NCBI GenBank assembly: GCA_023250155.1
Contig: JAHFBG010000005.1
Span: 89,057-153,056 of the forward strand
DNA from: Candidatus Melainabacteria bacterium
GTDB taxonomy: Bacteria > Cyanobacteriota > Vampirovibrionia > 2-02-FULL-35-15
Direction: 5' to 3'
DNA: 64,000 bases
In this document: piece by piece, positions 15,019-40,115 of the stretch
Layout of the letters: each line of letters opens with the position of its first letter
Numbering within the stretch: the stretch's first letter is position 1
The notes under the pieces: generated by a model
The model's input: the letters and a program-made list of their open reading frames with translations, nothing else
The model's database searches: none
What the model was told of the DNA's origin: nothing
Position numbers and translations under genes: made by a program

Positions 15019-17382
15019 ATGAAAATCAGCCAATTAATAGGCTCAGCAATACTAAGTACCACTTTTATCGTGGGCTCACAAAGTATTTCTGCAGGTGAAA
15101 AAGATAAACAGCCATCAAAAACCTTAACAGAAAAGAGACTCCAACCTCCACCTAAAATAAAAATAGCCTTAGACCAATTTGATATTACAAAACAAGAAAT
15201 TGTAGATGAGTTATTTAAGAATTTTGAAGATGTAAAACTCGGCAAAAGTGAAAGAGAAGAAATATCTAAATTTTTTAATGACAAGCTACAAACAATAGAT
15301 CGACCTACTGAGTCTTTTACGAAGGGATGTTTTTTATTGTTAGAGCTTTCTCGCAATGAACGAAATCATCATCAAAAATTTATTGAGTGGCTAAACCTAC
15401 AAGCAGAACAATCAATTCGCGATAAATCAAAAGAAAAGCAAAAAATCATAGAAAGTGCTATTAGAGAAGAATTGCGCATGGTAATAAAAACATTGAATCA
15501 TATTGAGCTCTCTAAATCTTTGGTTATACCTTATACAAAACTAATAAAAGAAAATAATTCTAATGCAGACTTTCTAAAGAATGGGATACGAGTTTATGAC
15601 CAATTTAAATCAAGAGGAAGTAAAGAAATCAATGACAACTCAATAGCACTACTTGACAATATCATAGAAGGATTATTAAAACTTCCGCGAAATGAACAAA
15701 AAGAACTTAAAGCTCAGATTCTTTTACTCCCTCAAAATAGTAATTTTCAGTCTGATAATGAAGCAGAACAAAACAGGCTTGTAGAACGATTATCAAAAGC
15801 ATTATGTAAGAATAAAAATGTTGATACCGATGGATTGATACAATTAACTGATTCATTTTTATATAAGGTTCCTTATCTTGGTTCAACTCAAACAGCAACA
15901 AAATGGCATCCTTATACACTCTATAAACTAGTCAATGATAATAAAGAATATTTTGAAAAAAATATTAAAAATATTACTGAAACAACTCAAGATTCTAAAG
16001 ATGAAAAGGCTAGATTAAAGGCAAGAGATGAGCTTCTACAAGCCTATATAACCTTCCAACATATTCCTAGAATAAAAAAGCTTTCTGATACTTACATTAA
16101 TATAGATCCAAAACTTGTTAGTCTTGAAAACTTAGGTAAGCTACAAAAAGAAGTAAGTACTTGGTATAACGATAAGCTAGAAAGACCAATGTTTAAAAGT
16201 ATTGTACAAGCATTAGAAAGTGAATCTGTAGAAACAACTACTTCAAGTAATGGAATACGATATGCTAAAAATGAAAGCTGGAGAGATCTTAACAAACACT
16301 TAGAAATCATAGTGAGGGTTAATCCTGAGCTAAAAAATGAATTTCGAGATGTCTTAATTAAAAGACTTGAAAATGATAAGAGTCCACAAAATAGAGAAAT
16401 GGTATATGAAACAATTAAAAACATATTGTATAACCAAGCATTTATAGAACACCCTCCACTAATGAATCTTATAAAAAAAGGAATTGCTGAGGAATCATCA
16501 AATGGAGCTTATCTCATTGGAGAACTGCTGCCTTCTGGTTGGCGTCCTCACTCATTTGTCAATGCATTTGAAAACTATGATGTAATTAAAGAATTAGACC
16601 CAAAAGAAGTGTCAGCAATTGATGCTATCAAATTTGATCTTATTCGTACTGTAAGTGGTGACACTGATTTATACAAAATTTATCTACCGCGACATTCTTT
16701 TGAACCAACAAAAGATAAAACAATAGATCCTAAAACGCTTAGTGCTATCTTACAACTTAGAGAAAATGCATACATTGCACTTTCTTCTATTAATCTACAC
16801 AGCCTTGAAGCAAGGGCTCATGATAAAAGAATTGATTACCTTGAAAGAAGAATTGAAAGGGTTGGAACCATTCAAACGCTTACCCCAACATGGGGAAAAC
16901 AAGCTGCTTCTCTTACCATGCTTTATCTTCAATATAGCGATACTGTCTTACCTGAAAGCGAAGGTAAAATTTACTTTGAATCAAAGTTAGATTTTTTAAG
17001 GGGAAAATTTTTTGATGGTATTACAAAAACATATGAAATAGAAGGTGAGAAAAAAAAATACACAACTATACCCTTTTTCAATGCAGTATTAGAAAGTGAG
17101 TTCATCAGATTAAACCCAGATGAAAATAGAAAAATTATCGACCAGCTTTATCGTCAAAAAGCTACAAATGCAGAAATTAGAGATCAAATTTTCAGACAAG
17201 AATCAAAACTTCAAAGAAGATATATTGAAATGAAACAAACATTTGCATTAAATTTTTTAACTCTTTTATGTGAGCGTGACCACACAAAGTTTAATGAATA
17301 CCTGCCTTATCTACAAAGACTAGGATATAGAAATGATGAGATTAGAGAAGTAGTAGCTATGTTTCTTGAAACGAAGGACTGA
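15019..17382 (+). CDS. Secreted α-helical protein, member 1 of a two-paralog family (function unknown)
   Basis: N-terminal signal-peptide-like segment (…ILSTTFIVGSQSISA|GE). The C-terminal third aligns with ORF 18935 (LDFLRGKFFDG / LDFLREKFFEG; YEIEGEKKKYTT). Confidence 0.5.
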   Translation: MKISQLIGSAILSTTFIVGSQSISAGEKDKQPSKTLTEKRLQPPPKIKIALDQFDITKQEIVDELFKNFEDVKLGKSEREEISKFFNDKLQTIDRPTESFTKGCFLLLELSRNERNHHQKFIEWLNLQAEQSIRDKSKEKQKIIESAIREELRMVIKTLNHIELSKSLVIPYTKLIKENNSNADFLKNGIRVYDQFKSRGSKEINDNSIALLDNIIEGLLKLPRNEQKELKAQILLLPQNSNFQSDNEAEQNRLVERLSKALCKNKNVDTDGLIQLTDSFLYKVPYLGSTQTATKWHPYTLYKLVNDNKEYFEKNIKNITETTQDSKDEKARLKARDELLQAYITFQHIPRIKKLSDTYINIDPKLVSLENLGKLQKEVSTWYNDKLERPMFKSIVQALESESVETTTSSNGIRYAKNESWRDLNKHLEIIVRVNPELKNEFRDVLIKRLENDKSPQNREMVYETIKNILYNQAFIEHPPLMNLIKKGIAEESSNGAYLIGELLPSGWRPHSFVNAFENYDVIKELDPKEVSAIDAIKFDLIRTVSGDTDLYKIYLPRHSFEPTKDKTIDPKTLSAILQLRENAYIALSSINLHSLEARAHDKRIDYLERRIERVGTIQTLTPTWGKQAASLTMLYLQYSDTVLPESEGKIYFESKLDFLRGKFFDGITKTYEIEGEKKKYTTIPFFNAVLESEFIRLNPDENRKIIDQLYRQKATNAEIRDQIFRQESKLQRRYIEMKQTFALNFLTLLCERDHTKFNEYLPYLQRLGYRNDEIREVVAMFLETKD

Positions 17383-17450
17383 AAGCATCACTTGCTCTAT
17401 CATGTAACATATCTTAAATACAAATAAGTCTTTAAAAAAACTTTATCTTT

Positions 17451-17476
17451 CTGTAACTCCTGGTTACAGTTTTTTT
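17451..17476 (+). terminator. Rho-independent terminator after ORF 15019..17382
   Basis: ctgtaac-tcctg-gttacag hairpin followed by T7. Confidence 0.5.
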
Positions 17477-17535
17477 AAAGCTACCGGGGTATACTCCATA
17501 GGTGTAGGCTAAATATAACTTTTTAGGGGTATAAT

Positions 17536-17877
17536 ATGAATACAACAATGAATGATCCTATTGAACAAAGAGTAAAAACACTAGAATTGAAAGTCGAGTT
17601 TCTTGAAAATTGGAAAAATACTCCTTTTATTCAAGTAACACTTCCAGTCATACTTTCTATTTTCTTGGCTACTTCCTGGAATAATTTTGGATTTACATCC
17701 ATTGATAAAAGATTTGACTCGGTAGAGAAGGGGATGAATAAACTATCATACAGAATTGGAAAGGTAGAAAATCGACTAGGTAAAGTAGAAAACCGATTAG
17801 GTAAAGTAGAAGATCGACTAGACAAAGTAGAGAATCGACTAGGTAAAGTAGAAGTCAAAATCGAAAGACTTAACTAG
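17536..17877 (+). CDS. Small membrane-anchored coiled-coil protein with five tandem heptads (KVENRLG)
   Basis: One central hydrophobic helix. The C-terminus is a 21-nt tandem repeat at 17757..17860 encoding GKVENRL x5. Confidence 0.4.
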   Translation: MNTTMNDPIEQRVKTLELKVEFLENWKNTPFIQVTLPVILSIFLATSWNNFGFTSIDKRFDSVEKGMNKLSYRIGKVENRLGKVENRLGKVEDRLDKVENRLGKVEVKIERLN

Positions 17878-18715
17878 ATTTTATTACTGCATTTGAATTA
17901 AGTTCTTTATAATCAAGCTCTTGATTATCAGACTCAATAAGATATTTTTTAAAAGCATCAGTACCAGGAATAGGTTTATATTTTTTTGAAACTATACTTA
18001 TATCTCTTAAGAGATAATTTTCAAACTCTTCTTTAATAAAATACTGTTTCCTTTTATCTTCAATTATATGAAAGCAATTTCTTTCTAAGTACCTCTCTAA
18101 AAGTTTTTTTTCATCTGCTGCAATCACAGCAAGCACAAATAGCCATAAGTGATCAGTTGTTGCGCCTGCATTATATAACTTCTCACAAGTAGAAGCACCT
18201 ATTCCAAACATTCGATAAATAGCTGGTCGTTCAATTCCATCTCGAAAGATTAGTCTTATTGTTTCTTTTTTCTTTTGTTGTAATTCATTAAACTTTTCTT
18301 CAATCTCTGTATCAGCAATAACGGAGTAAAGATATCGTTCAAGCTCTTCATCAGCTTGTTTCCATCCTCCATCTTCTAGGATAGAAATACAATCCATAGT
18401 CAAATGTTTTATAGGACAGTTTCTTTCAACTCTATTAACCGCAGCATCATAATAAAGCCTGATTTGTTCAGAAGATGCAGAAGCACCTATTAGTTCTGCA
18501 ACTCCTTCTTCAAAGTCTTCTATAGGTAAATCATTTCTATGAAGGTAATTTATTATATGATCATATAACTCAGAATCATCATATAAACTAGTGGATAGAG
18601 AAATTAATTCCCAAATTGTTGTATCACTGAACTTATCAAAAGACTGATATGAAGAGTATTTAGGAAGTGAAGGAAAAGTATCTACTTTTTGTATAGAAAC
18701 ACTCATAAAGTACAA
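17870..18715 (-). CDS. Hypothetical protein, 281 aa, no recognisable domain
   Basis: Long ORF with coding-like composition. Divergently arranged to ORF 18935. Confidence 0.35.
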   Translation of the reverse strand: MYFMSVSIQKVDTFPSLPKYSSYQSFDKFSDTTIWELISLSTSLYDDSELYDHIINYLHRNDLPIEDFEEGVAELIGASASSEQIRLYYDAAVNRVERNCPIKHLTMDCISILEDGGWKQADEELERYLYSVIADTEIEEKFNELQQKKKETIRLIFRDGIERPAIYRMFGIGASTCEKLYNAGATTDHLWLFVLAVIAADEKKLLERYLERNCFHIIEDKRKQYFIKEEFENYLLRDISIVSKKYKPIPGTDAFKKYLIESDNQELDYKELNSNAVIKSS

Positions 18716-18934
18716 ATATTATAGTTTATTCTTAGAGTAGTTGTTCACCTGATTTTATTACAAGCAATAGTCCTTATTCACTCCAGGTGAACAGTTTTAC
18801 TTCTTATGATAAAGTTAGAGGTTAAACATCTTAAACATGTATTTCCATCATTGTTTGACATTAAGATCTTAATTGTGTTATAAATCTTTCAGTTAAATTT
18901 TTATATTTAAGAAGGCAATTATAAGAAATAAATC

Positions 18935-21754
18935 GTGATAAGTAAAATCACTCCAAATAGATTAATAGGTTCCCTAGTACTAGGTTCAGCTTTTATTGTG
19001 GGTTCACAAGGCATATCTGCAGATAAAAAAGAAAGTCCAAAAGTTTTGAATGAGAAAGGTGACAAATCCTTACCTAAACAAAATATAACATTAGACAAAT
19101 TAACTCTTTCAAAAGAAGTATTACAAGAAAAACTATTTAAACAAGTTGAAATATTAAAACCAGGTACAAAAGAAAGAAAAGAAGTACTTGAGATTTTAAA
19201 ACAAAAAGCTGTTTTTGAATTTGAATCTCCAAACAGAAATGAGATTGGGAAAAAGCTAATCCAACTTATGGAGAAAAATAAAAATGCAGAGAGTTGGAAA
19301 GATTTAGCATCAACTATTTTAGATATAATGGAGAAACAAGCATTAGAAAATAAAGAAATTTTACGTGTTGATAACTGGACGGGTAAGGTCGATAAAATAA
19401 AACTCAATGAAGAGTTAATGACTCCATTTGCTAAATGTTTAATATCTGCCTTTGATGATAAATCTCCTGAAGAGTTAAAGACACAAGCTCAAGTTCAAAT
19501 AATCAATTTAATATATCCACCTTTTATATATAAAGAACCTTTCAAAGAATTTCATAAAATACTATTTCAAGAAATAAGTAACGTTCCAGAAGACAAACAA
19601 AAAGAAGTAGCAGTAAAGCTTCGTGACATCACTGGCATTCACTTCAACCATATGGCACATTTACAAAAGCATGAATATACTATCGTGTGGGAATTAGCTA
19701 GAACAATAGCACCTTCCTGTGAAACTATTTTAAAAACAAATTTAAAACTCCTAGCAAGTGATGATTTGACAAAAAAAACTATAGCAACAGATAACTTAAT
19801 AGCTTTAAATAATGTTTTTAGTTTTTCATCGTCAAGATCAGTTTTACATAGAGAAATGAATGCTGTTAAACATATGGATCAGTTTTTCAAAGGAACACTA
19901 ACAAAAGATCCTAAATTACTAAGCACTCAAGAACTAGAAGTCACTATTAAAGCAAGTCAAGCTCTTCTTGAGCTATGTAGTGAAAATCCAATTGAATACC
20001 ATAAATCATATCAAAGCTGGCTACAAAAACAGATTGATAATATACTCATAGATACTTCTAAAGAAAAGCAAATTCTTATAGAAGATGCCATAGCACATGA
20101 GGCAAATCGCAGTTATCTCCACCCACCAGAAATAAGAAAAGAATTTCAACCACTTATAGAAAAATACACAAAACTAACCGTACAGAATTTAGATAATCCT
20201 TTATTTCTAGGTAAAGCTTTAGATACATTTATCATATTCAGGGATCGTATAGTGAACTCATCATACGACATAGACCCTAAAATAAAAAATAACCTTAGTG
20301 AATCTACTATCAACTTATTGGATTTTATAATTGATGGAATTAACAAACTCCCAGAAAGTAAAGAGAAAACTCTTCTTAGGAGTCATATACTTTCAATACC
20401 AGCTTACTTAAGCGCTGAAGAAAAAGCCAAACAAAATAAACTCATTGAAAAGCTCTCTGATTTTTACTGTAAGCAACCTCATAATATAGAAGAGTTTTTA
20501 CAAGTTAGAGGATCCTTATTATATGAAGATCTTACATCTAGCTGGTCTCCTTATATGCTTCATAGTTTTGTATCTAAGAATTTAGACTATTTCGAAAAGA
20601 ATACTAATCAAATTCTTGAATCGCACAAAAAGGCTAAAGAGCCAGAGCATAAGCTATCTACTAGAATCCAAGTACTAGAGCTCTATAAATTCTTTTCAAG
20701 ATTAGAAGAGTCTGAGAATTTGGATGTGTGGTTAAAAACAAGAAATCTAAAAACTCGTTATGAGTTAGGTTCAAAAGAATTACAACCTCTAATATTGAAA
20801 ACAAGTTCTTTCTTTAAAGAAAAACTAGAAAGGCCTTTGTTTAAAATCATCTTATCTGAGATTGACAATGAAACAGTAAAAAGTAAAAAAACAAAAAGTG
20901 GGCAAATCCTTACAGACAATGTAACCTGGAAAGCATTAAACCGAGAACTCCAAATCTTAGTAAAGCTAAGACCATCACTAAGTAGTGAAATCAGAGAAAC
21001 TATAGTTAAGAGATTAAAAAAAGACTCAGATCCACACATCCGCGAAATGTGTTATGAAACTTTAAGAGCTACATTGTCTCGTGAACATAATATTGATAAA
21101 GATCTAATGAGTATTTTAAAAGATGGTATAGCTAAAGAAACCTCACCAGAAGCTATTCGTGGCATAAGTAAAGTTTTATCTGAATATTATATTCTTAGCA
21201 ATAAAAAAGATGGCTCATATTTTAATCCATTTAGAGATCTTTCAAAAGTAAAAGACATAAAATACGAAGAAGTCTCACCCCTATTTACTATTACCTTAGA
21301 CGCTATTCGTATATTAGGAGGAGATGGTGATTTGTTCAAAGCATATCTTCCTCACCATACATTTAAACCTGAAAAGGATGGAAGCATAAATAAAGATGAT
21401 CTTAAAGCCATATTACAGCTTAGAAAAAACGCATTTCTTACCCTTGCAAATACTGGAATTAATATTTCTACATCTGCACCAGACTATAGAGATAGTGTAA
21501 TGAACTATCTGGAAAGAAGATTAGAGAGATATGCTCCTCCAGATGACTTGATAAAAATCTGGGGAGAAGAAGCCACTGCTTTAATAAAAATTTACTCTAC
21601 CCTTGATTCAACAACAAAAAGCAATTCAGAGATTCAATTTAATTCTAAGCTTGATTTTTTAAGAGAAAAGTTTTTTGAGGGCACTCCTACATACTATGAA
21701 ATTGAAGGAAAAAAAAACTATACATCTCAATTCCACTATTCAACCATATCCTAG
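18935..21754 (+). CDS. Secreted α-helical protein, paralog 2 of the 15019 family; N-terminal 939 codons end at a frameshift in an A9 tract
   Basis: GTG start and signal-peptide-like N-terminus. Homology to paralog 1 continues past the stop in the -1 frame. Confidence 0.5.
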   Translation: MISKITPNRLIGSLVLGSAFIVGSQGISADKKESPKVLNEKGDKSLPKQNITLDKLTLSKEVLQEKLFKQVEILKPGTKERKEVLEILKQKAVFEFESPNRNEIGKKLIQLMEKNKNAESWKDLASTILDIMEKQALENKEILRVDNWTGKVDKIKLNEELMTPFAKCLISAFDDKSPEELKTQAQVQIINLIYPPFIYKEPFKEFHKILFQEISNVPEDKQKEVAVKLRDITGIHFNHMAHLQKHEYTIVWELARTIAPSCETILKTNLKLLASDDLTKKTIATDNLIALNNVFSFSSSRSVLHREMNAVKHMDQFFKGTLTKDPKLLSTQELEVTIKASQALLELCSENPIEYHKSYQSWLQKQIDNILIDTSKEKQILIEDAIAHEANRSYLHPPEIRKEFQPLIEKYTKLTVQNLDNPLFLGKALDTFIIFRDRIVNSSYDIDPKIKNNLSESTINLLDFIIDGINKLPESKEKTLLRSHILSIPAYLSAEEKAKQNKLIEKLSDFYCKQPHNIEEFLQVRGSLLYEDLTSSWSPYMLHSFVSKNLDYFEKNTNQILESHKKAKEPEHKLSTRIQVLELYKFFSRLEESENLDVWLKTRNLKTRYELGSKELQPLILKTSSFFKEKLERPLFKIILSEIDNETVKSKKTKSGQILTDNVTWKALNRELQILVKLRPSLSSEIRETIVKRLKKDSDPHIREMCYETLRATLSREHNIDKDLMSILKDGIAKETSPEAIRGISKVLSEYYILSNKKDGSYFNPFRDLSKVKDIKYEEVSPLFTITLDAIRILGGDGDLFKAYLPHHTFKPEKDGSINKDDLKAILQLRKNAFLTLANTGINISTSAPDYRDSVMNYLERRLERYAPPDDLIKIWGEEATALIKIYSTLDSTTKSNSEIQFNSKLDFLREKFFEGTPTYYEIEGKKNYTSQFHYSTIS

Positions 21755-22038
21755 AATATGAATTTATAAAATTAAATCCACAGGAAAACAGAAAAATCAT
21801 TGATGAAATATACAGAACTCCTAAGACAGGTGAACAAGTGAGAGAGATGATTTTTAAAGAAGCACCTAGACTACAAGGCAAGTATCTAAAGATGAGACAA
21901 GATTTTGCATTGACTATTCTAAACACCTTAGCTGACAGTCCACATACAAGTCTTAGTACCCATGCAGATTATTTAAGATTAATGGGTTATAGAGACTATG
22001 AGTTAAAAGAAGCTTTAGAAAATTTTATTCCGCAGTAG
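21716..22038 (+). pseudogene. Out-of-frame C-terminal continuation of paralog 2 (..IPLFNHILEYEFIKLNPQENRKIID..MGYRDYELKEALENFIPQ)
   Basis: Matches the paralog 1 C-terminus (IPFFNAVLESEFIRLNPDENRKIID…LGYRNDEIREVV). One extra A in the A9 run at 21709..21717 would fuse it to 18935..21754. Confidence 0.5.
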
Positions 22039-22043
22039 TTAAA

Positions 22044-22160
22044 AAAAGCATCTTTCATTCCACAGTGCCCTCCCTCAACTCCTCTGACCATTAACTAAGC
22101 GTTAACGGTTCCCCTCGGGGCATTCGGGAGTGGCACTGCTACATCATGCTTTTTTTTACA
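22044..22160 (+). repeat. Copy A of a ~110-nt nested-hairpin repeat element ending in a T-tract; probably acts as a terminator
   Basis: aaagcat…agtgccctccc…ccattaactaagcgttaacgg…cccctcgggg…gggagtggcact…atgcttttttt. Second copy at 23077..23185. Confidence 0.5.
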
Positions 22161-22226
22161 CTTAATCTATCCCAGACCTACTAACAAATCTCTTTTACCA
22201 ACTTCATGTTAATATAATCAACAATT

Positions 22227-23042
22227 ATGGTCATAACAGAAGAAAAAACAAGCAAATCAATTAACGAAAGAGAAAACGCTGTAAGACAAACAAGCACAAT
22301 AAGCTTAAACCTTTTTAATTATTGTTTTTTGATTTATTATTATTTAGTAAAAGAGATTAAAAAAAATGCTCATTATGCTAAAGGAGTATTGCTTGATGTA
22401 GGATGTGGATCTTCTCCATTTCAAAACTATTTTCTACCTCACATAGAAAAATATTTAAAACACGAACATCCCCTTGCTGTAAAACCAAACATTGAATATG
22501 ACTATCTTTCAGAACTACCAGAAATAAACGCACCCACAAATTCAATAGATACAATAATTTCATTCTCAGTTTTAGAACATGTAAGCGAACCATTTGAAGC
22601 CATAAAGGAGTTTAAAAGAATTTTAAAAGATAATGGAGTATTCATGATATCTGTTCCACAGTATTGGCATCTTCATGAAGAACCCCATGACTATCTTAGA
22701 TTTACAAAACACGTACTGAGAGAAAAAATTACTAAATTAGGTTTTAAGATCTTATACATGAAAGAAGAAGGAAAGTCTTTTGCTACTGTAGGCCAGGCTT
22801 TTTGTAATGCAATTATTTTAATGTTTGAATTAAAACATGTTAAAAATATTGTTAATTTTCTATCAGGAAAAAAAGTAGATAATATTGGGAAAAGTATTAT
22901 TTATGCTATTTACAAATCTCCTTTAATTCTTTTAGCAATTATCCTAATACCACTTATCAATTTAATCTTTTTAACCTTAGATCAAATACTAGGTAGCCCA
23001 AGAGATACTATTGGGTATTTTGTTATTGCAAGAAAAGTTTAA
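22227..23042 (+). CDS. Class I SAM-dependent methyltransferase (type 11-like)
   Basis: LLDVGCGSSPF motif I, FSVLEHV motif. Flanked by two copies of the structured repeat. Confidence 0.55.
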   Translation: MVITEEKTSKSINERENAVRQTSTISLNLFNYCFLIYYYLVKEIKKNAHYAKGVLLDVGCGSSPFQNYFLPHIEKYLKHEHPLAVKPNIEYDYLSELPEINAPTNSIDTIISFSVLEHVSEPFEAIKEFKRILKDNGVFMISVPQYWHLHEEPHDYLRFTKHVLREKITKLGFKILYMKEEGKSFATVGQAFCNAIILMFELKHVKNIVNFLSGKKVDNIGKSIIYAIYKSPLILLAIILIPLINLIFLTLDQILGSPRDTIGYFVIARKV

Positions 23043-23076
23043 ATGTATTAACTGGTATTGCATCTCTGAATACAAA

Positions 23077-23185
23077 AAGCATCTTACACTCCATATTGCC
23101 TTCCCTCAGCCCCTCCGACCATTAACTAGGCGTTAACAGTTCCCGTCGGGACATTCGGGAATGGCAATATTAAATCGTGCTTTTT
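23077..23185 (+). repeat. Copy B of the nested-hairpin repeat element
   Basis: About 85% identical to copy A. Differences are compensatory in stems (agtgcc/ggcact becomes attgcc/ggcaat; ctccc/gggag becomes ttccc/gggaa). Confidence 0.5.
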
Positions 23186-23251
23186 GTATTTAGTTATTTA
23201 GCCATCATTGACTTTTTAACAGACCCTGTAATTTGTTGTATATTAATATCC

Positions 23252-24346
23252 ATGAAAGCAGTTATTCTAAGCGGTGGTTCTGGACAAAGATTAGCACCAC
23301 TTACAAACACAATTACAAAACAACTTTTACCTGTTGCAAATAAACCAACATTGTTTCACATATTAGATCTAATCAAAGAAGAAACGCCAATAAAATCTAT
23401 CTGTGTCGTTGTCAGTGAAGAGTATGGTCATAAGGTAAAAGAAACCCTCTTGAACTCAGAACATGCAAAATACTTTGAGTTTGATTTTGTGTTTCAAGAC
23501 AAACCCCTTGGTTTAGCTCATGCTGTGCAGATTACAAATATGCATATGGGTGAAGAACAATTTCTTATGTTTCTTGGAGACATCTTAATAAACAAAGGAG
23601 AGCTAAAAGCTGCCTATGAACAGTTTATAAAAAACAAACCTGAAAGTCTTGTTTTAGTAAAAGAGGTTGAAGACCCAAGACCATATGGAATAGCTGAAGT
23701 TACAAATGGCAAAGTCACAAAGCTTGTAGAAAAGCCTCAGGACCCTAAATCTAATTTATGCTTGTCTGGAATTTATCTTTTTAATCCTTCCATTTTTTAT
23801 GCTATTGCAAATATAAAACCTAGCTATAGAGGTGAACTTGAAATAACGGATGCTGTGGATTTTCTAATACAACAAAAAAACACAGTAGAGTACTACATTA
23901 TAAAAAGCTGGTGGTTTGATGTAGGTACACCTGAAAACATGTTAAAAGGTAATGAGGTTTTATTAAATAACATTTCAAATACCATTAATTCAAAACTTAA
24001 CAATACTGTCAAAATACAAGGAAAAGTATCGATAGATCAAAATGTCATCATTGAAGATTCTGAAATAGTAGGTCCTGTAATCATTGCAAAGAATGCTCAC
24101 ATAAAGGGTTGTAAGATAGGTCCTTATGTAAGCCTTGGTGAAAGTGTCACATTAAAAAACACAAAAGTTGAAAACTCAATAATTAGAGAAAACTCTAGGG
24201 TAAAAAACTTCACAAGGATAATTTCAAATAGTGTTCTTGGAAAAAATGTAGAATTGGCTCTTGAAGACAATACTCAAGCAGTAAGCGGAAACAGCAAAAA
24301 GGTAAAAGTAATTTTAGGAGATGATACAAAATGCACATCATTGTAA
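23252..24346 (+). CDS. Sugar-1-phosphate nucleotidylyltransferase, RmlA-like long form with C-terminal left-handed β-helix
   Basis: MKAVILSGGSGQRLAPLT…KQLLPVANKP N-terminus, G1P-thymidylyltransferase-like. C-terminal hexapeptide-repeat region. Likely true start at Met 23252, not 23177. Confidence 0.7.
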   Translation: MKAVILSGGSGQRLAPLTNTITKQLLPVANKPTLFHILDLIKEETPIKSICVVVSEEYGHKVKETLLNSEHAKYFEFDFVFQDKPLGLAHAVQITNMHMGEEQFLMFLGDILINKGELKAAYEQFIKNKPESLVLVKEVEDPRPYGIAEVTNGKVTKLVEKPQDPKSNLCLSGIYLFNPSIFYAIANIKPSYRGELEITDAVDFLIQQKNTVEYYIIKSWWFDVGTPENMLKGNEVLLNNISNTINSKLNNTVKIQGKVSIDQNVIIEDSEIVGPVIIAKNAHIKGCKIGPYVSLGESVTLKNTKVENSIIRENSRVKNFTRIISNSVLGKNVELALEDNTQAVSGNSKKVKVILGDDTKCTSL

Positions 24347-25314
24347 CTGGTGGTTTAGGTTTTATTGGTTCAAACTTCATTAGACATCTCATCAATGAGA
24401 ATAAAGATATTTTCATTACAAATATTGATGCCCAGACTTATGCAGGAAGGCTTGATAATTTACAAGATATTGAAAAACACAAGAACTATCAGTATTTTAA
24501 GGGAAACATTCAAGACTATGATTTCATTCAAAATATAGTTAGAACTTATAAGCCTGATGCCATAATTAATTTTGCTGCTGAAACCCATGTAGACAGAAGC
24601 ATTACAAAAGCACAACCTTTTATTGAAACAAATATTATTGGCACTCACACGCTGCTTGAAGTAGCACTTAAAGAAAAGCTAAAAAAATACATCCAAATAA
24701 GCACTGATGAAGTCTATGGCTCAATTAATCCACCAGACAAATTCACTGAAACAAATTTAATCAAACCAAATAGTCCATACTCAGCCAGCAAAGCCTCAGC
24801 TGATCACTTAGTCAGAGCATACAATAAAACATATGGCTTAAACACTGTAATCATAAGATGTTCAAACAATTTTGGTCCTTATCAATTCCCTGAAAAAGTG
24901 ATCCCATTATTTATTTCCAATGCTATAGAAAATAAAAAAGTCCCTGTCTATGGTGATGGTTTAAATGTAAGAGATTGGATTTATGTCTTAGATTTCTGTT
25001 CAGCTATTTCACTGATTCTTGAAAAAGGGAAATCTGGTGAAGTCTATAATGTAGGTGGTGATTATGAAACAACAAACCTAGAACTCACAAAAACTATTCT
25101 TAAAAGACTGGAAAAAACAGAAGAATTAATAAACTATGTAGAAGATAGACTAGGACATGATCGTAGATATGCCATGGACACTACAAAAATCAGCACAGAA
25201 CTTGGCTGGAAGAAAAAACACGATTTTAATGAAGCACTAGATTTAACTATAGATTGGTATAAGAAAAACACAGTGTGGGTTGAAAGAAGAACTAAAGCAT
25301 CTGTAGTTAGATAA
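24331..25314 (+). CDS. rfbB: dTDP-glucose 4,6-dehydratase
   Basis: TGGLGFIGSNF Rossmann motif, STDEVYG, YSASKASADHLVRAY catalytic YxxxK. Overlaps the upstream gene by 16 nt. Confidence 0.85.
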   Translation: MHIIVTGGLGFIGSNFIRHLINENKDIFITNIDAQTYAGRLDNLQDIEKHKNYQYFKGNIQDYDFIQNIVRTYKPDAIINFAAETHVDRSITKAQPFIETNIIGTHTLLEVALKEKLKKYIQISTDEVYGSINPPDKFTETNLIKPNSPYSASKASADHLVRAYNKTYGLNTVIIRCSNNFGPYQFPEKVIPLFISNAIENKKVPVYGDGLNVRDWIYVLDFCSAISLILEKGKSGEVYNVGGDYETTNLELTKTILKRLEKTEELINYVEDRLGHDRRYAMDTTKISTELGWKKKHDFNEALDLTIDWYKKNTVWVERRTKASVVR

Positions 25315-25421
25315 ATACAACATGAATCCCAGATTGCTAAACCTATTAATCAAAGAAGGAGAAGGCTTAACCACTGAGTTCAAAGAAAAAATCACATCTA
25401 ACAATATATTTATACCCATTC

Positions 25422-25452
25422 TTGAGTTATAAAACCCTAGTTTATAACTCAA
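25422..25452. terminator. Bidirectional hairpin between convergent rfbB and asnB-like genes
   Basis: Perfect 11-bp stem ttgagttataa / ttataactcaa with 7-nt loop. Confidence 0.35.
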
Positions 25453-25511
25453 TATCTTTAAAAAATTCCTTAAACCCTCTAACATTTCCAGGGAATTGTT
25501 TCTCTAAAACA

Positions 25512-39032: not shown

Positions 39033-40115
39033 ATGAAAGAAAAAATGCTTAAGTATCTTTGTTGTCCTGAATGTAGCTCTAATATAGAGTTAGCTAGACA
39101 TAAAGGAATTGACTCAACAAATCATATCACTGAGGGTGAATTAGTTTGTACTGGATGCAAAAATACTTATCCCATTATAAGTGGCGTGCCATTTTTCTGT
39201 TTAAATACAGATGATAAAACAGTAGACTTAAATAGAAAGAATTTTGCCAGTGAGTGGAACTACTTTACATCCTCAATGGGAGATAAAAATGAACAGCTTG
39301 CAAAAGATGAATTAGAAAGTTATTTTTCTCCATTTGTTCAGTTTAAAGATTTAGAAGATAAGAGTGTTCTTGAAGGTGGTTGTGGTGGTGGAAGATTAGT
39401 TTATGCAGCAGCAAAATACTCAGGGGCAAAAGAGATAATAGGCGTTGACTTATCAAATGCAGTAATAACAGCTTTTAAAAACACCAGACATCTCCCTAAT
39501 GTTTCAATTATTCAGGCAGATATTACAAATCTACCTTTTAAAAAAGATAAAATGTTTGATTTTATTTATTCTGTTGGTGTATTACACCACATGCCAAATC
39601 CATATTTAGGTTTCAGCTCTTTAGTAGAACATTTAAAAAAAGATGGCAAGATCCTTGCCTGGGTATATGGAAAAGAAGGAAACTCACTATACATAAACTT
39701 TGCAGACCCAATAAGGAAACTAATCACTTCAAGGTTTCCATTTAAAGTAAATCTTTACTTATCATGTTTTATATCACTTATCGTATGGGGCATCATATTA
39801 GGTTTTTATTCTCCACTCAATTTAATATTGAAAGAAAAAAATACTAATAAAGTCTTACCTTTTAATGAATACTTTAACTATTTTAGAAAAAGAGGATTTA
39901 AAGATTTTTGGAGAACTGTTTTTGATAAAATGGTTCCAACAATTTCATACTATATTTCGCATGAAGAATTTAAAACTTGGTTTGAAAAAAGCAATCTAGA
40001 ATATGAAACATATTTTCGAAATGGGCATAGCTGGACTGGGATTGGAAAATCTGCTGTAGGTCTGAGTCGCGACTCAGACCTACAGCAACATGGGTTTAAA
40101 ACAACGTATAAATAA
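39033..40115 (+). CDS. SAM-dependent methyltransferase with N-terminal Trm112-like zinc-ribbon
   Basis: LKYLCCPEC…CTGC zinc ribbon, VLEGGCGGGRL motif I, VGVLHHM. The C-terminal tail is encoded by a 34-nt palindrome. Confidence 0.6.
   Translation: MKEKMLKYLCCPECSSNIELARHKGIDSTNHITEGELVCTGCKNTYPIISGVPFFCLNTDDKTVDLNRKNFASEWNYFTSSMGDKNEQLAKDELESYFSPFVQFKDLEDKSVLEGGCGGGRLVYAAAKYSGAKEIIGVDLSNAVITAFKNTRHLPNVSIIQADITNLPFKKDKMFDFIYSVGVLHHMPNPYLGFSSLVEHLKKDGKILAWVYGKEGNSLYINFADPIRKLITSRFPFKVNLYLSCFISLIVWGIILGFYSPLNLILKEKNTNKVLPFNEYFNYFRKRGFKDFWRTVFDKMVPTISYYISHEEFKTWFEKSNLEYETYFRNGHSWTGIGKSAVGLSRDSDLQQHGFKTTYK
40054..40087. repeat. 34-nt perfect palindrome (17-bp arms, no loop), GC-rich, inside the 3' end of the methyltransferase CDS
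   Basis: gctgtaggtctgagtcg|cgactcagacctacagc read directly. Confidence 0.6.

Follow-up and report, generated by a model that had tools for sequence, protein, structure and literature searches.

The window analysed here is a 64,000-nt stretch of contig JAHFBG010000005.1 from a Candidatus Melainabacteria bacterium; Melainabacteria are a non-photosynthetic, uncultured group that is sister to Cyanobacteria. The window contains a large envelope-polysaccharide and glycosylation region encoding DUF2298/PMT-like membrane proteins with TPR, radical SAM/SPASM and LPG_synthase_TM proteins, glycosyltransferases, several methyltransferases, rmlA-like and rmlB products, AsnB and a DegT aminotransferase, beyond which lie recF, gyrB, prs, tRNA-Val, murA and a futalosine-pathway decarboxylase gene. 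In this region, one methyltransferase (MTase) gene, which according to its domain match does not encode a DNA methyltransferase, is bracketed by two direct copies, A and B, of a previously undescribed hairpin-forming intergenic repeat (Table 1). The repeat makes up a new family within an already familiar type of element, and it is the first small repeat family, mobile or structured, to be sketched in Melainabacteria.

A first-pass annotation of this DNA had described two copies of about 110 nt and about 85% identity around the MTase gene, and the measured identities of 81-87% agreed with it. Repeat search of the 64-kb window aligned positions 22040-22154 with 23071-23185 as direct repeats of 83% identity, the mean column identity in a MAFFT alignment was 87% over 146 columns, and BLAST matched A with B at E = 2e-18. 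The core motifs occurred exactly twice in the window, against 0.00-0.05 occurrences expected by chance, and no third copy was found in the window by BLAST or by a covariance model (CM). Both copies open with A-runs and close with the matching T-runs, of which the T-tract at the 3' end of each had already been noticed. The module is 110-116 nt long and non-coding, with stop codons in all six frames of the apical hairpin, and its GC content of 45-52% stands ~15 points above the background of ~30% in the window and genome. Only 2 nt lie between the upstream gene's stop codon and copy A, copy B begins 31 nt past the stop codon before it, and the downstream ATG follows at 70 nt from A and 66 nt from B. 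The outer stem of copy B runs on into the non-homologous flanks (23066-23081 / 23178-23193), so that this copy is nested in its own outer stem, lengthened by 8 bp.

Table 1. Copies A and B, their helices and the neighbouring features of the window (CM, covariance model; SAM, S-adenosylmethionine)
Feature	Positions	Strand	Basis
Copy A, core module, 116 nt	22041..22156	+	CM, 129.7 bits
Copy A, helix P1	22041-22051/22146-22156	+	structure table
Copy A, helix P2, bulged T at 22131	22062-22074/22126-22139	+	structure table
Copy A, helix P4	22078-22086/22113-22121	+	structure table
Copy A, helix P3, apical loop 22096-22100	22087-22095/22101-22109	+	structure table
Copy B, core module, 112 nt	23074..23185	+	CM, 130.6 bits
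Copy B, helix P1	23074-23082/23177-23185	+	structure table
Copy B, helix P2, bulged T at 23162	23093-23105/23157-23170	+	structure table
Copy B, helix P4	23109-23117/23144-23152	+	structure table
Copy B, helix P3, apical loop 23127-23131	23118-23126/23132-23140	+	structure table
176-nt segment with copy B, absent from the L015 and L006 MTase-rmlA spacer	23053..23228	+	alignment
Class I SAM-dependent methyltransferase, Methyltransf_11/23 plus hydrophobic C-terminus	22227..23042	+	domain match
3' end of ~1030-aa gene, stop just before copy A	21751..22038	+	frameshifted at A9 run
-10-like box CATGTTAATATAATCAAC, conserved, 6-23 nt before the MTase ATG, downstream of A	22204..22221	+	read from sequence
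Promoter-like TTAACA-17-TATATT, its end 8 nt short of the rmlA-like ATG (23252), downstream of B	23216..23244	+	scan
Canonical bidirectional intrinsic terminator, A7 - CTGTAAC..GTTACAG - T7, between ORF 15019-17382 (+) and ORF 17870-18715 (-)	17430-17480		sequence

Further copies and a CM had been proposed as a check, and both were obtained. Four more copies were found in other Melainabacteria DNA (loci L004, L005, L006 and L011), and the six together represent no fewer than five distinct insertion sites, spread over four or more lineages, every copy being oriented as its upstream gene. L004 and L005 came from one metagenome pattern scan, in which two JGI contigs carried the 19-nt core of the element. 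The copy in L004 lies directly after the nuoC stop codon, which its outer inverted repeat abuts (the NuoC homologs are those of Melainabacteria), and the copy in L005 lies after the truncated HEPN gene of an NTase/HEPN pair, facing a convergent gene. The copies in L006/7/8 and in L011 were found via MTase orthologs, upstream of which they stand. A CM built from four copies scored all six at 66-131 bits; it is usable for annotating these metagenome-assembled genomes, with modest practical value. The core of B was 96-98% identical to those of L004 and L005, compared with 76-84% for the MTase genes between lineages. L004 and L005 bear an extra 17-nt inverted repeat, ATACCATTTGTGAAAAT / ATTTTTCACGTTTGGTAT, that is absent from A, B and L011, and outside the core module the shells of window-type and L005-type copies showed no homology to each other.

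The distribution of the family appeared narrow in every collection searched. The 19-nt core had 0 matches in an exact-pattern scan of the GTDB representative genomes, and three viral-contig scans returned 0, 0 and 28 matches, the last all failing the CM and being chance matches. No match was found by BLAST in plasmid and phage collections. With Rfam, at gathering and permissive thresholds, the only match in the window was a tRNA, the element reaching E-values of 2.4 or worse, and L004-L006 gave nothing. A profile of the peptides that would arise from the element if it were translated within an ORF, run against 5.8 billion proteins in search of more insertions, gave 4 candidates, none of which scored. 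Over the loci of MTase orthologs and nuoC orthologs, ~361 kb of Melainabacteria DNA, the CM found no copy beyond those found by BLAST.

Both strands of A and B folded far more stably than shuffled controls, with z values of -5.5 to -7.6 as RNA and -4.9 to -6.2 as DNA. One rod-like fold, an imperfect hairpin of ~50 bp, fitted all copies, and in L005 it was recovered unaided by RNAfold. The outermost helix, P1, consists of the A-run plus 4-5 bp against the T-run (AAAAAGCAT/ATGCTTTTT in the window copies) and is followed by an asymmetric internal loop. P2 comprises 11-13 bp with an invariant bulged T (AGTGCC-CTCCC / GGGAG-T-GGCACT in the window), and the loop TCA / ATTC separates it from P4, which pairs GCCCC..CG with CG..GGGGC and carries a TCC bulge. 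The innermost helix, P3 (ACC-A-TTAAC / GTTAA-C-GGT), is capped by a 5-nt apical loop. The outer stem, P2 and P3 had all been named in the first-pass annotation and were all present, P2 with the addition of its bulged T. A fourth hairpin proposed there, cccc-tc-gggg, was not supported: it would have a 2-nt loop, it was 66.7% paired across the copies with zero covariation, and the change from cccctcgggg to cccgtcggga is not compensatory. Its bases pair at least equally well with the C-rich 5' segment, giving the single rod, in favour of which a three-way junction with the small cccNtcNggg hairpin was dropped.

The stems have varied in sequence while the pairing has been kept. The hand-curated table contained 29-36 Watson-Crick pairs per copy, with L005 free of mismatches, and 88.9% of the cells were paired in the CM alignment of the six copies. 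At ten pairs both partners had changed; shuffling the columns gave 4.8±1.5 such pairs (0 of 500 shuffles reached ten), and sliding the partners as a control gave 0-2. The two compensated G-C to T-A pairs reported earlier between A and B are real, and at one exact pair for which A and B have found different solutions, L011 holds the half-changed intermediate T·C. P1 has the solutions GCAT/ATGC in the window, CCAGC/GCTGG in L005 and CCAGT/ACTGG in L006. P2 occurs as AGTGCC/GGCACT, ATTGCC/GGCAAT and GCATTG/CAATGC, the last of which is a symmetric 2-bp deletion in both arms. The apical hairpin of L011 (AAC-C-ATCC / GGAT-A-GTT) has a wholly different sequence with the same shape and retains the A/C mismatch. 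For P4, the support is conservation only. Stem covariation, symmetric indels and conserved bulges could thus be read from just six copies; as the test uses six sequences and some of the double changes are symmetric indels, we regard the covariation evidence from these alignments as good but not overwhelming.

The unpaired features ATTC, the bulged T and the TCC bulge were invariant across the copies. Template switching within a palindrome would tend to erase such asymmetry, so the conserved loops argue against mere palindrome "repair", and the compensated stems together with the invariant asymmetric loops point to a constraint on a folded single strand and not to simple decay. Selection on the structure, as opposed to passive decay, had been claimed from A and B, and it is strengthened here by six copies in at least four lineages with compensated stems, symmetric two-arm indels and fixed asymmetric loops. 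In each of the five full copies the bottom strand, antisense to the genes, formed the more stable fold, by 8-18 kcal/mol. An attempt to identify the functional strand from the numbers of G·U and A·C mismatches (4 and 10) was dropped, the counts being non-independent. We infer that the conserved fold would fit a constraint on RNA or DNA and on either strand, and the uniform orientation fits an RNA-level constraint or strand-specific insertion.

Insertion polymorphism was evident when filled sites were compared with empty ones. In L015 the spacer upstream of the MTase ortholog is empty and reads stop-TACCCACATG-CTAATATAATCAAC-ATG, and relative to it L006 has an insertion of 224 nt, which follows TATCCACATG, stops immediately short of a second TACCCACATG and is flanked by the 10-bp direct repeat TAYCCACATG. 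The L006 copy lies inside a palindrome with the outer repeat TCGAGGATGTCAT/ATGACATCCTCGA. The copy in L011 has taken the place of the final three codons of the TPR gene that precedes it. Downstream of the MTase gene, the spacer to the rmlA-like gene in L015 and L006 reads GTATTAAC-GA-TTAATTTGTTGTATATT without an insert, at the place of the segment with copy B in the window, around whose insertion there is a possible duplication of TTAAC.

The MTase gene itself was present in the relatives irrespective of the repeats. Its close homologs, about 70 with 62-86% identity, are named Candidatus Melainabacteria, to which the genome scan added Candidatus Caenarcanales. A chlamydial source, which the low GC and a futalosine-pathway gene had at first suggested, was discarded in view of these names among the MTase and NuoC homologs. 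The gene order in L009 and L012-L022 is two DUF2298 genes, radical SAM/SPASM, LPG_synthase_TM, TPR, MTase, rmlA-like and rmlB. The gaps around the MTase gene in L012-L014 are 7 nt before and 50 nt after it, the gap after it in L009 is 49 nt, and other relatives are similarly short. Among ~16 distinct orthologous MTase loci compared, the repeat was found upstream of the gene in three (the window, L006/7/8 and L011) and downstream in the window only, being missing from 13. The first-pass annotation had suggested a cassette-like insertion of the MTase gene, with its absence from relatives as a check. The opposite was found: the gene is syntenic in the same cluster of ~16 related lineages, and the repeats are the inserts. 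The empty sites in close relatives mean that the repeats inserted around an ancestral gene, which refutes the cassette reading; the aligned loci show the MTase gene to be an ancestral cluster member and not cargo. One relative, L019 (CAZRTB010000002.1), is titled "uncultured Gammaproteobacteria bacterium" and contains a Melainabacteria-type MTase gene (69% identity) followed directly by the rmlA-like gene; its label is probably wrong.

The same spacer upstream of the MTase gene is also filled by unrelated palindromic repeats, of the GTCATTGCGAG... type in L009 and L016 and a variant of it in L022. The genes of the envelope-polysaccharide cluster in Melainabacteria are thus separated by interchangeable palindromic inserts. 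We read the spacer as a hot spot that tolerates, or is targeted by, palindromic inserts, and this is no proof of a dedicated regulator, a rival reading that nonetheless retains some weight. The second palindromic family, GTCATTGCGAG ... CTCGCAATGAC, was located at 8715-8881 of L009, 9866-9963 of L016, 18984-19067 of L020, 2735-2833 of L023 and near 9946 of L022; several of its members are in the spacer upstream of the MTase gene, and the outer inverted repeat of L006 resembles its ends.

Terminator-like and promoter-like features border the copies. The bidirectional terminator at 17430-17480 shows that A-run/T-run terminators are used by this organism, and the ends of the element copy its A7/T7 layout with a ~95-nt rod in place of the loop. 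A scan for canonical terminators over 20500-25500 found no terminator-like site; compared with a canonical intrinsic terminator, the element has the T-run, but its closing stem encloses the ~95-nt structured domain. Downstream of A, the -10-like box before the MTase gene is also present in relatives without the repeat, and downstream of B, the TTGTATATT part of the promoter-like site is conserved in relatives. These boxes, CATGYTAATATAATCAAC (22204-22221; the MTase-side box can also be given as TAATATAAT, ~8 nt from the ATG) and TTGTATATT (23230-23244), end ~8 nt before the ATGs both here and in relatives, and a Shine-Dalgarno sequence is lacking, which suggests that the MTase and rmlA-like mRNAs may be near-leaderless.

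On balance, we consider it probable that A and B are low-copy, lineage-restricted, non-autonomous mobile palindromic elements of the MITE (inverted-repeat transposable element of miniature size), REPIN or SPRITE kind in groundwater Melainabacteria (Vampirovibrionia). As far as it can be read from the aligned loci, the comparison of relatives shows the element to be mobile. The mobilising enzyme, the nucleic acid and strand on which it acts and a terminator effect belong to a mechanism that may be pictured as follows. The unit is the module of ~110-116 nt, which, when single-stranded as DNA or RNA, folds into the long imperfect rod. Since the fold has been kept rather than the sequence of the stems, propagation would need recognition of the folded strand, perhaps in the way of IS200/RAYT-type or other structure-specific enzymes, and tolerance or use of the element by the host may depend on the fold too. 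Landing sites are intergenic, right after stop codons, repeatedly by this MTase gene, and in or beside other palindromes. Co-transcribed with its upstream gene, the element would place a ~50-bp hairpin flanked by U-runs at the 3' end of the mRNA, where it might act as a weak bidirectional terminator-like structure, a 3' stabiliser or an RNase III target and would stand as a divider between that gene and the promoter-like box of the following one. Such effects are documented for Correia, ERIC and REP/BIME elements and have been proposed for SPRITE. Should termination or RNase processing be confirmed, this lineage would have in the element an insulator part of natural origin.

Several observations weigh against the mobile-element interpretation. 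A, B and L011 lack a clear target-site duplication and have no terminal repeats past the A/T-run stem, and the 10-bp duplication in L006 encloses a composite that includes another palindromic repeat. Among the genes of the window there is none for a transposase, RAYT or recombinase. The copy number looks very low for a MITE, at 2 in 64 kb with none further in ~361 kb of relatives, and the 19-nt core was carried by just two JGI metagenome contigs and by no GTDB representative. Four of the six copies flank one gene, which could mean local function over mobility. With regard to the effect on transcripts, the outer stem has just 2-4 G-C pairs before the large internal loop and the terminator scan was empty, and the greater stability of the bottom strand, together with top-strand mismatches that are A·C in 10 cases and G·U in 4, does not favour a role as top-strand mRNA.

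The clustering around one gene could instead reflect a cis-acting structured RNA (a leader, insulator or 3'-untranslated-region element) selected at the MTase and rmlA-like boundaries, working on these genes as RNA and not mobile. The four copies in the two spacers flanking the MTase gene are all gene-oriented, both copies found through orthologs (L006 and L011) lie in the upstream spacer despite ~360 kb of other intergenic DNA scanned, and the covariation, the conserved loops and the similar ATG spacing of A (70 nt) and B (66 nt) would agree with such an RNA. We nevertheless consider it unlikely, as the element is missing at 13 of the ~16 orthologous loci, the three upstream copies represent three insertion points with differing shells, and the copies of L004 (nuoC) and L005 (HEPN, convergent gene) stand in unrelated contexts; the unrelated palindromes in the same spacer of L009, L016 and L022 suggest an insertion hot spot, and there was no Rfam match. 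A small RNA family in the usual sense, as had also been proposed, met the same objections concerning Rfam, the orthologous loci and the contexts, and the element has no promoter of its own.

It is likewise improbable, in our view, that the element serves, as folded single-stranded DNA, as the site of action of a recombinase, transposase or nickase with structural specificity, in the manner of attC, IS200/IS605 ends, REP/RAYT or Xer-exploiting hairpins, in which case the bottom-strand hairpin would be functional and any RNA effect incidental. Such a site would account for the conserved asymmetric bulges (T and TCC), the fixed A·C/G·T position, the covarying stems, the bottom strand that is consistently more stable as DNA and as RNA, the 10-bp flanking duplication in L006, and the uniform gene-relative orientation, which insertion coupled to a single replication strand would be expected to produce. 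Against this, no HUH/Y1, tyrosine or serine recombinase gene was found in the window or beside any copy, attC-type R''/R' core sites are missing from the ends, as is any conserved flanking tetranucleotide, and the copy number is low. We also give only a small chance to the conserved 55-nt core, with its covarying stems and fixed asymmetric loops, being a functional folded module of an undescribed kind, either a protein-recognised single-stranded DNA or RNA that moves from one Melainabacteria genome to another without a conventional transposase and homes to the apexes of palindromes or terminators near particular genes, or a new bottom-strand structured non-coding RNA.

Quite improbable is the local duplication of an ordinary intergenic terminator that has since drifted, with the covariation produced by quasipalindrome template switching and not by selection. 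There are just two copies in 64 kb, their ends resemble the A-run/T-run terminator at 17430-17480, and the single-side mismatches have the ordinary transition bias with no strand preference. Near-identical cores at unrelated loci of other lineages, the empty sites in relatives and a GC content 15 points over background are at odds with such drift, as are the conserved asymmetric loops and bulges, which template switching would symmetrise. That A and B are attC-like boundaries of a mobile gene cassette that brought in the MTase gene, as two direct imperfect-palindrome repeats bracketing one ORF might suggest, is so improbable that it can be set aside: the gene has the same cluster position in relatives without either repeat, the closest relatives hold one repeat or none, the window has no integrase, the repeat ends are unlike RYYYAAC / GTTRRRY, and the inserted DNA is the repeats. 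Direct repeats around a gene therefore need not mark a cassette.

As probable mobile elements, the copies were compared with known small repeats. SPRITE elements have AAAA/TTTT termini and lie at the 3' ends of coding sequences (PMC3049150). The element is like them in being a small non-coding interspersed repeat whose sole terminal inverted repeat is an A-run with its T-run complement, in having a long duplex, longer than in normal terminators, followed by a U-rich tract, in lying near the 3' ends of coding sequences, and in its relatively low copy number, lack of a clear target-site duplication and clustering or nesting with other repeats; pneumococcal BOX, RUP and SPRITE repeats also insert into one another (PMC10969869). 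The termini, the long duplex with a U-rich tail and the 3' position were all found, which is a resemblance and not family membership. The differences are that SPRITE is AT-rich relative to its genome whereas the element is ~15 GC points richer than its own, that SPRITE has an 18-bp duplex and the element a ~50-bp multi-helix rod with conserved asymmetric loops, and that SPRITE reaches 30 copies per genome against 2 in 64 kb and none in ~360 kb of relatives. The two come from different phyla with no sequence relationship expected, and they are likened by traits alone.

REPIN hairpins undergo frequent compensatory changes (PMC3116915), and the element is like REPINs and REP sequences (PMC3116915, PMC3733652) in its extragenic position, its two inverted arms in a long hairpin, the common compensatory changes, and a fold predicted in single-stranded DNA or mRNA with proposed roles in termination and mRNA stability. 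REPINs, unlike the element, occur in hundreds per genome, with REP units of 20-40 nt, GTAG/CGTC tags and a RAYT gene. No RAYT (Y1 transposase) was found among the window ORFs and no conserved terminal tag in the element, which with its low copy number places it outside the REPIN/REP-RAYT systems. In addition, its apical core is the most conserved part and its outer arms vary, the reverse of REPINs.

Correia elements of Neisseria and ERIC/IRU of Enterobacteria are likewise imperfect palindromes of ~100-150 nt that are co-transcribed with their neighbours, and Correia and ERIC hairpins are targets of RNase III or RNase E that can terminate transcription or alter mRNA stability (PMC10969869). Correia differs in its 26-bp terminal inverted repeats, TA duplication and hundreds of copies, compared with simple A/T-run ends in the element. 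ERIC contains orientation-dependent RNase E sites, whereas the element is known from sequence alone. The element resembles attC sites (57-141 bp) in being an imperfect palindrome with structure kept over sequence and conserved extrahelical bases, in the likeness to a site of which one strand is the active folded form, and in the direct repeats flanking a single ORF; unlike attC, it has no R''/R' core sites, integrase or cassette array, the bracketed gene is ancestral, and the core of the family is highly conserved in sequence. With MITEs it shares the short non-coding length (110-116 nt) as well as insertion polymorphism and dispersed copies (filled and empty sites; at least five sites in at least four lineages), and its terminal inverted repeats are the A-run/T-run plus 4-5 bp, with the 17-nt repeat in L004 and L005 only.

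Some further features of the locus were noted. Two independent short assemblies of the same strain, L002 (from window position 22056) and L003 (window 22084-23123), are broken inside copies, which suggests that assemblies of this organism become fragmented at the repeats or at further copies present in those samples; with two contigs ending inside copies, the repeats may add to contig breaks. The gene upstream of A is frameshifted at an A9 run (21709-21718), a 939-aa ORF stopping at 21754 and the next frame reaching 22038. The same gene is unbroken, in one frame, in the relative L015, and the independent ENA assembly L001 has the same frameshifted sequence; a pseudogene, slippage at this site or a homopolymer error common to both assemblies may account for it. 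This gene belongs to a block of ~7 kb (15019-22038) between the TPR and MTase genes, with ORFs of 787 aa, 281 aa (minus strand) and ~1030 aa and no Pfam domain. The TPR and MTase genes are adjacent in most relatives (L009, L011, L012, L018, L021), and of the block, the last gene at any rate is shared by L015 and L006.

A separate, conserved two-hairpin motif of ~95 nt, TGTAGGATTTGTC..GCAAATCCG ... GGAAG.TC.AGCTT.TCT.GAGCTAT, occurs at 10860-10955 of L011 and 1405-1500 of L077, just upstream of the gene after the MTase ortholog (FAD-oxidoreductase-like in L011, rmlA-like in L077). It had no Rfam match and may be an unrelated leader or regulatory RNA. Elsewhere in the window, positions 40052-40087 form a perfect G+C-rich palindrome of 36 bp, in which TGCTGTAGGTCTGAGTCG and CGACTCAGACCTACAGCA meet with no spacer. 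No second copy of it was found in the window or the fetched loci, and it lies in the 3' part of a Trm112p-methyltransferase ORF (39033-40115).

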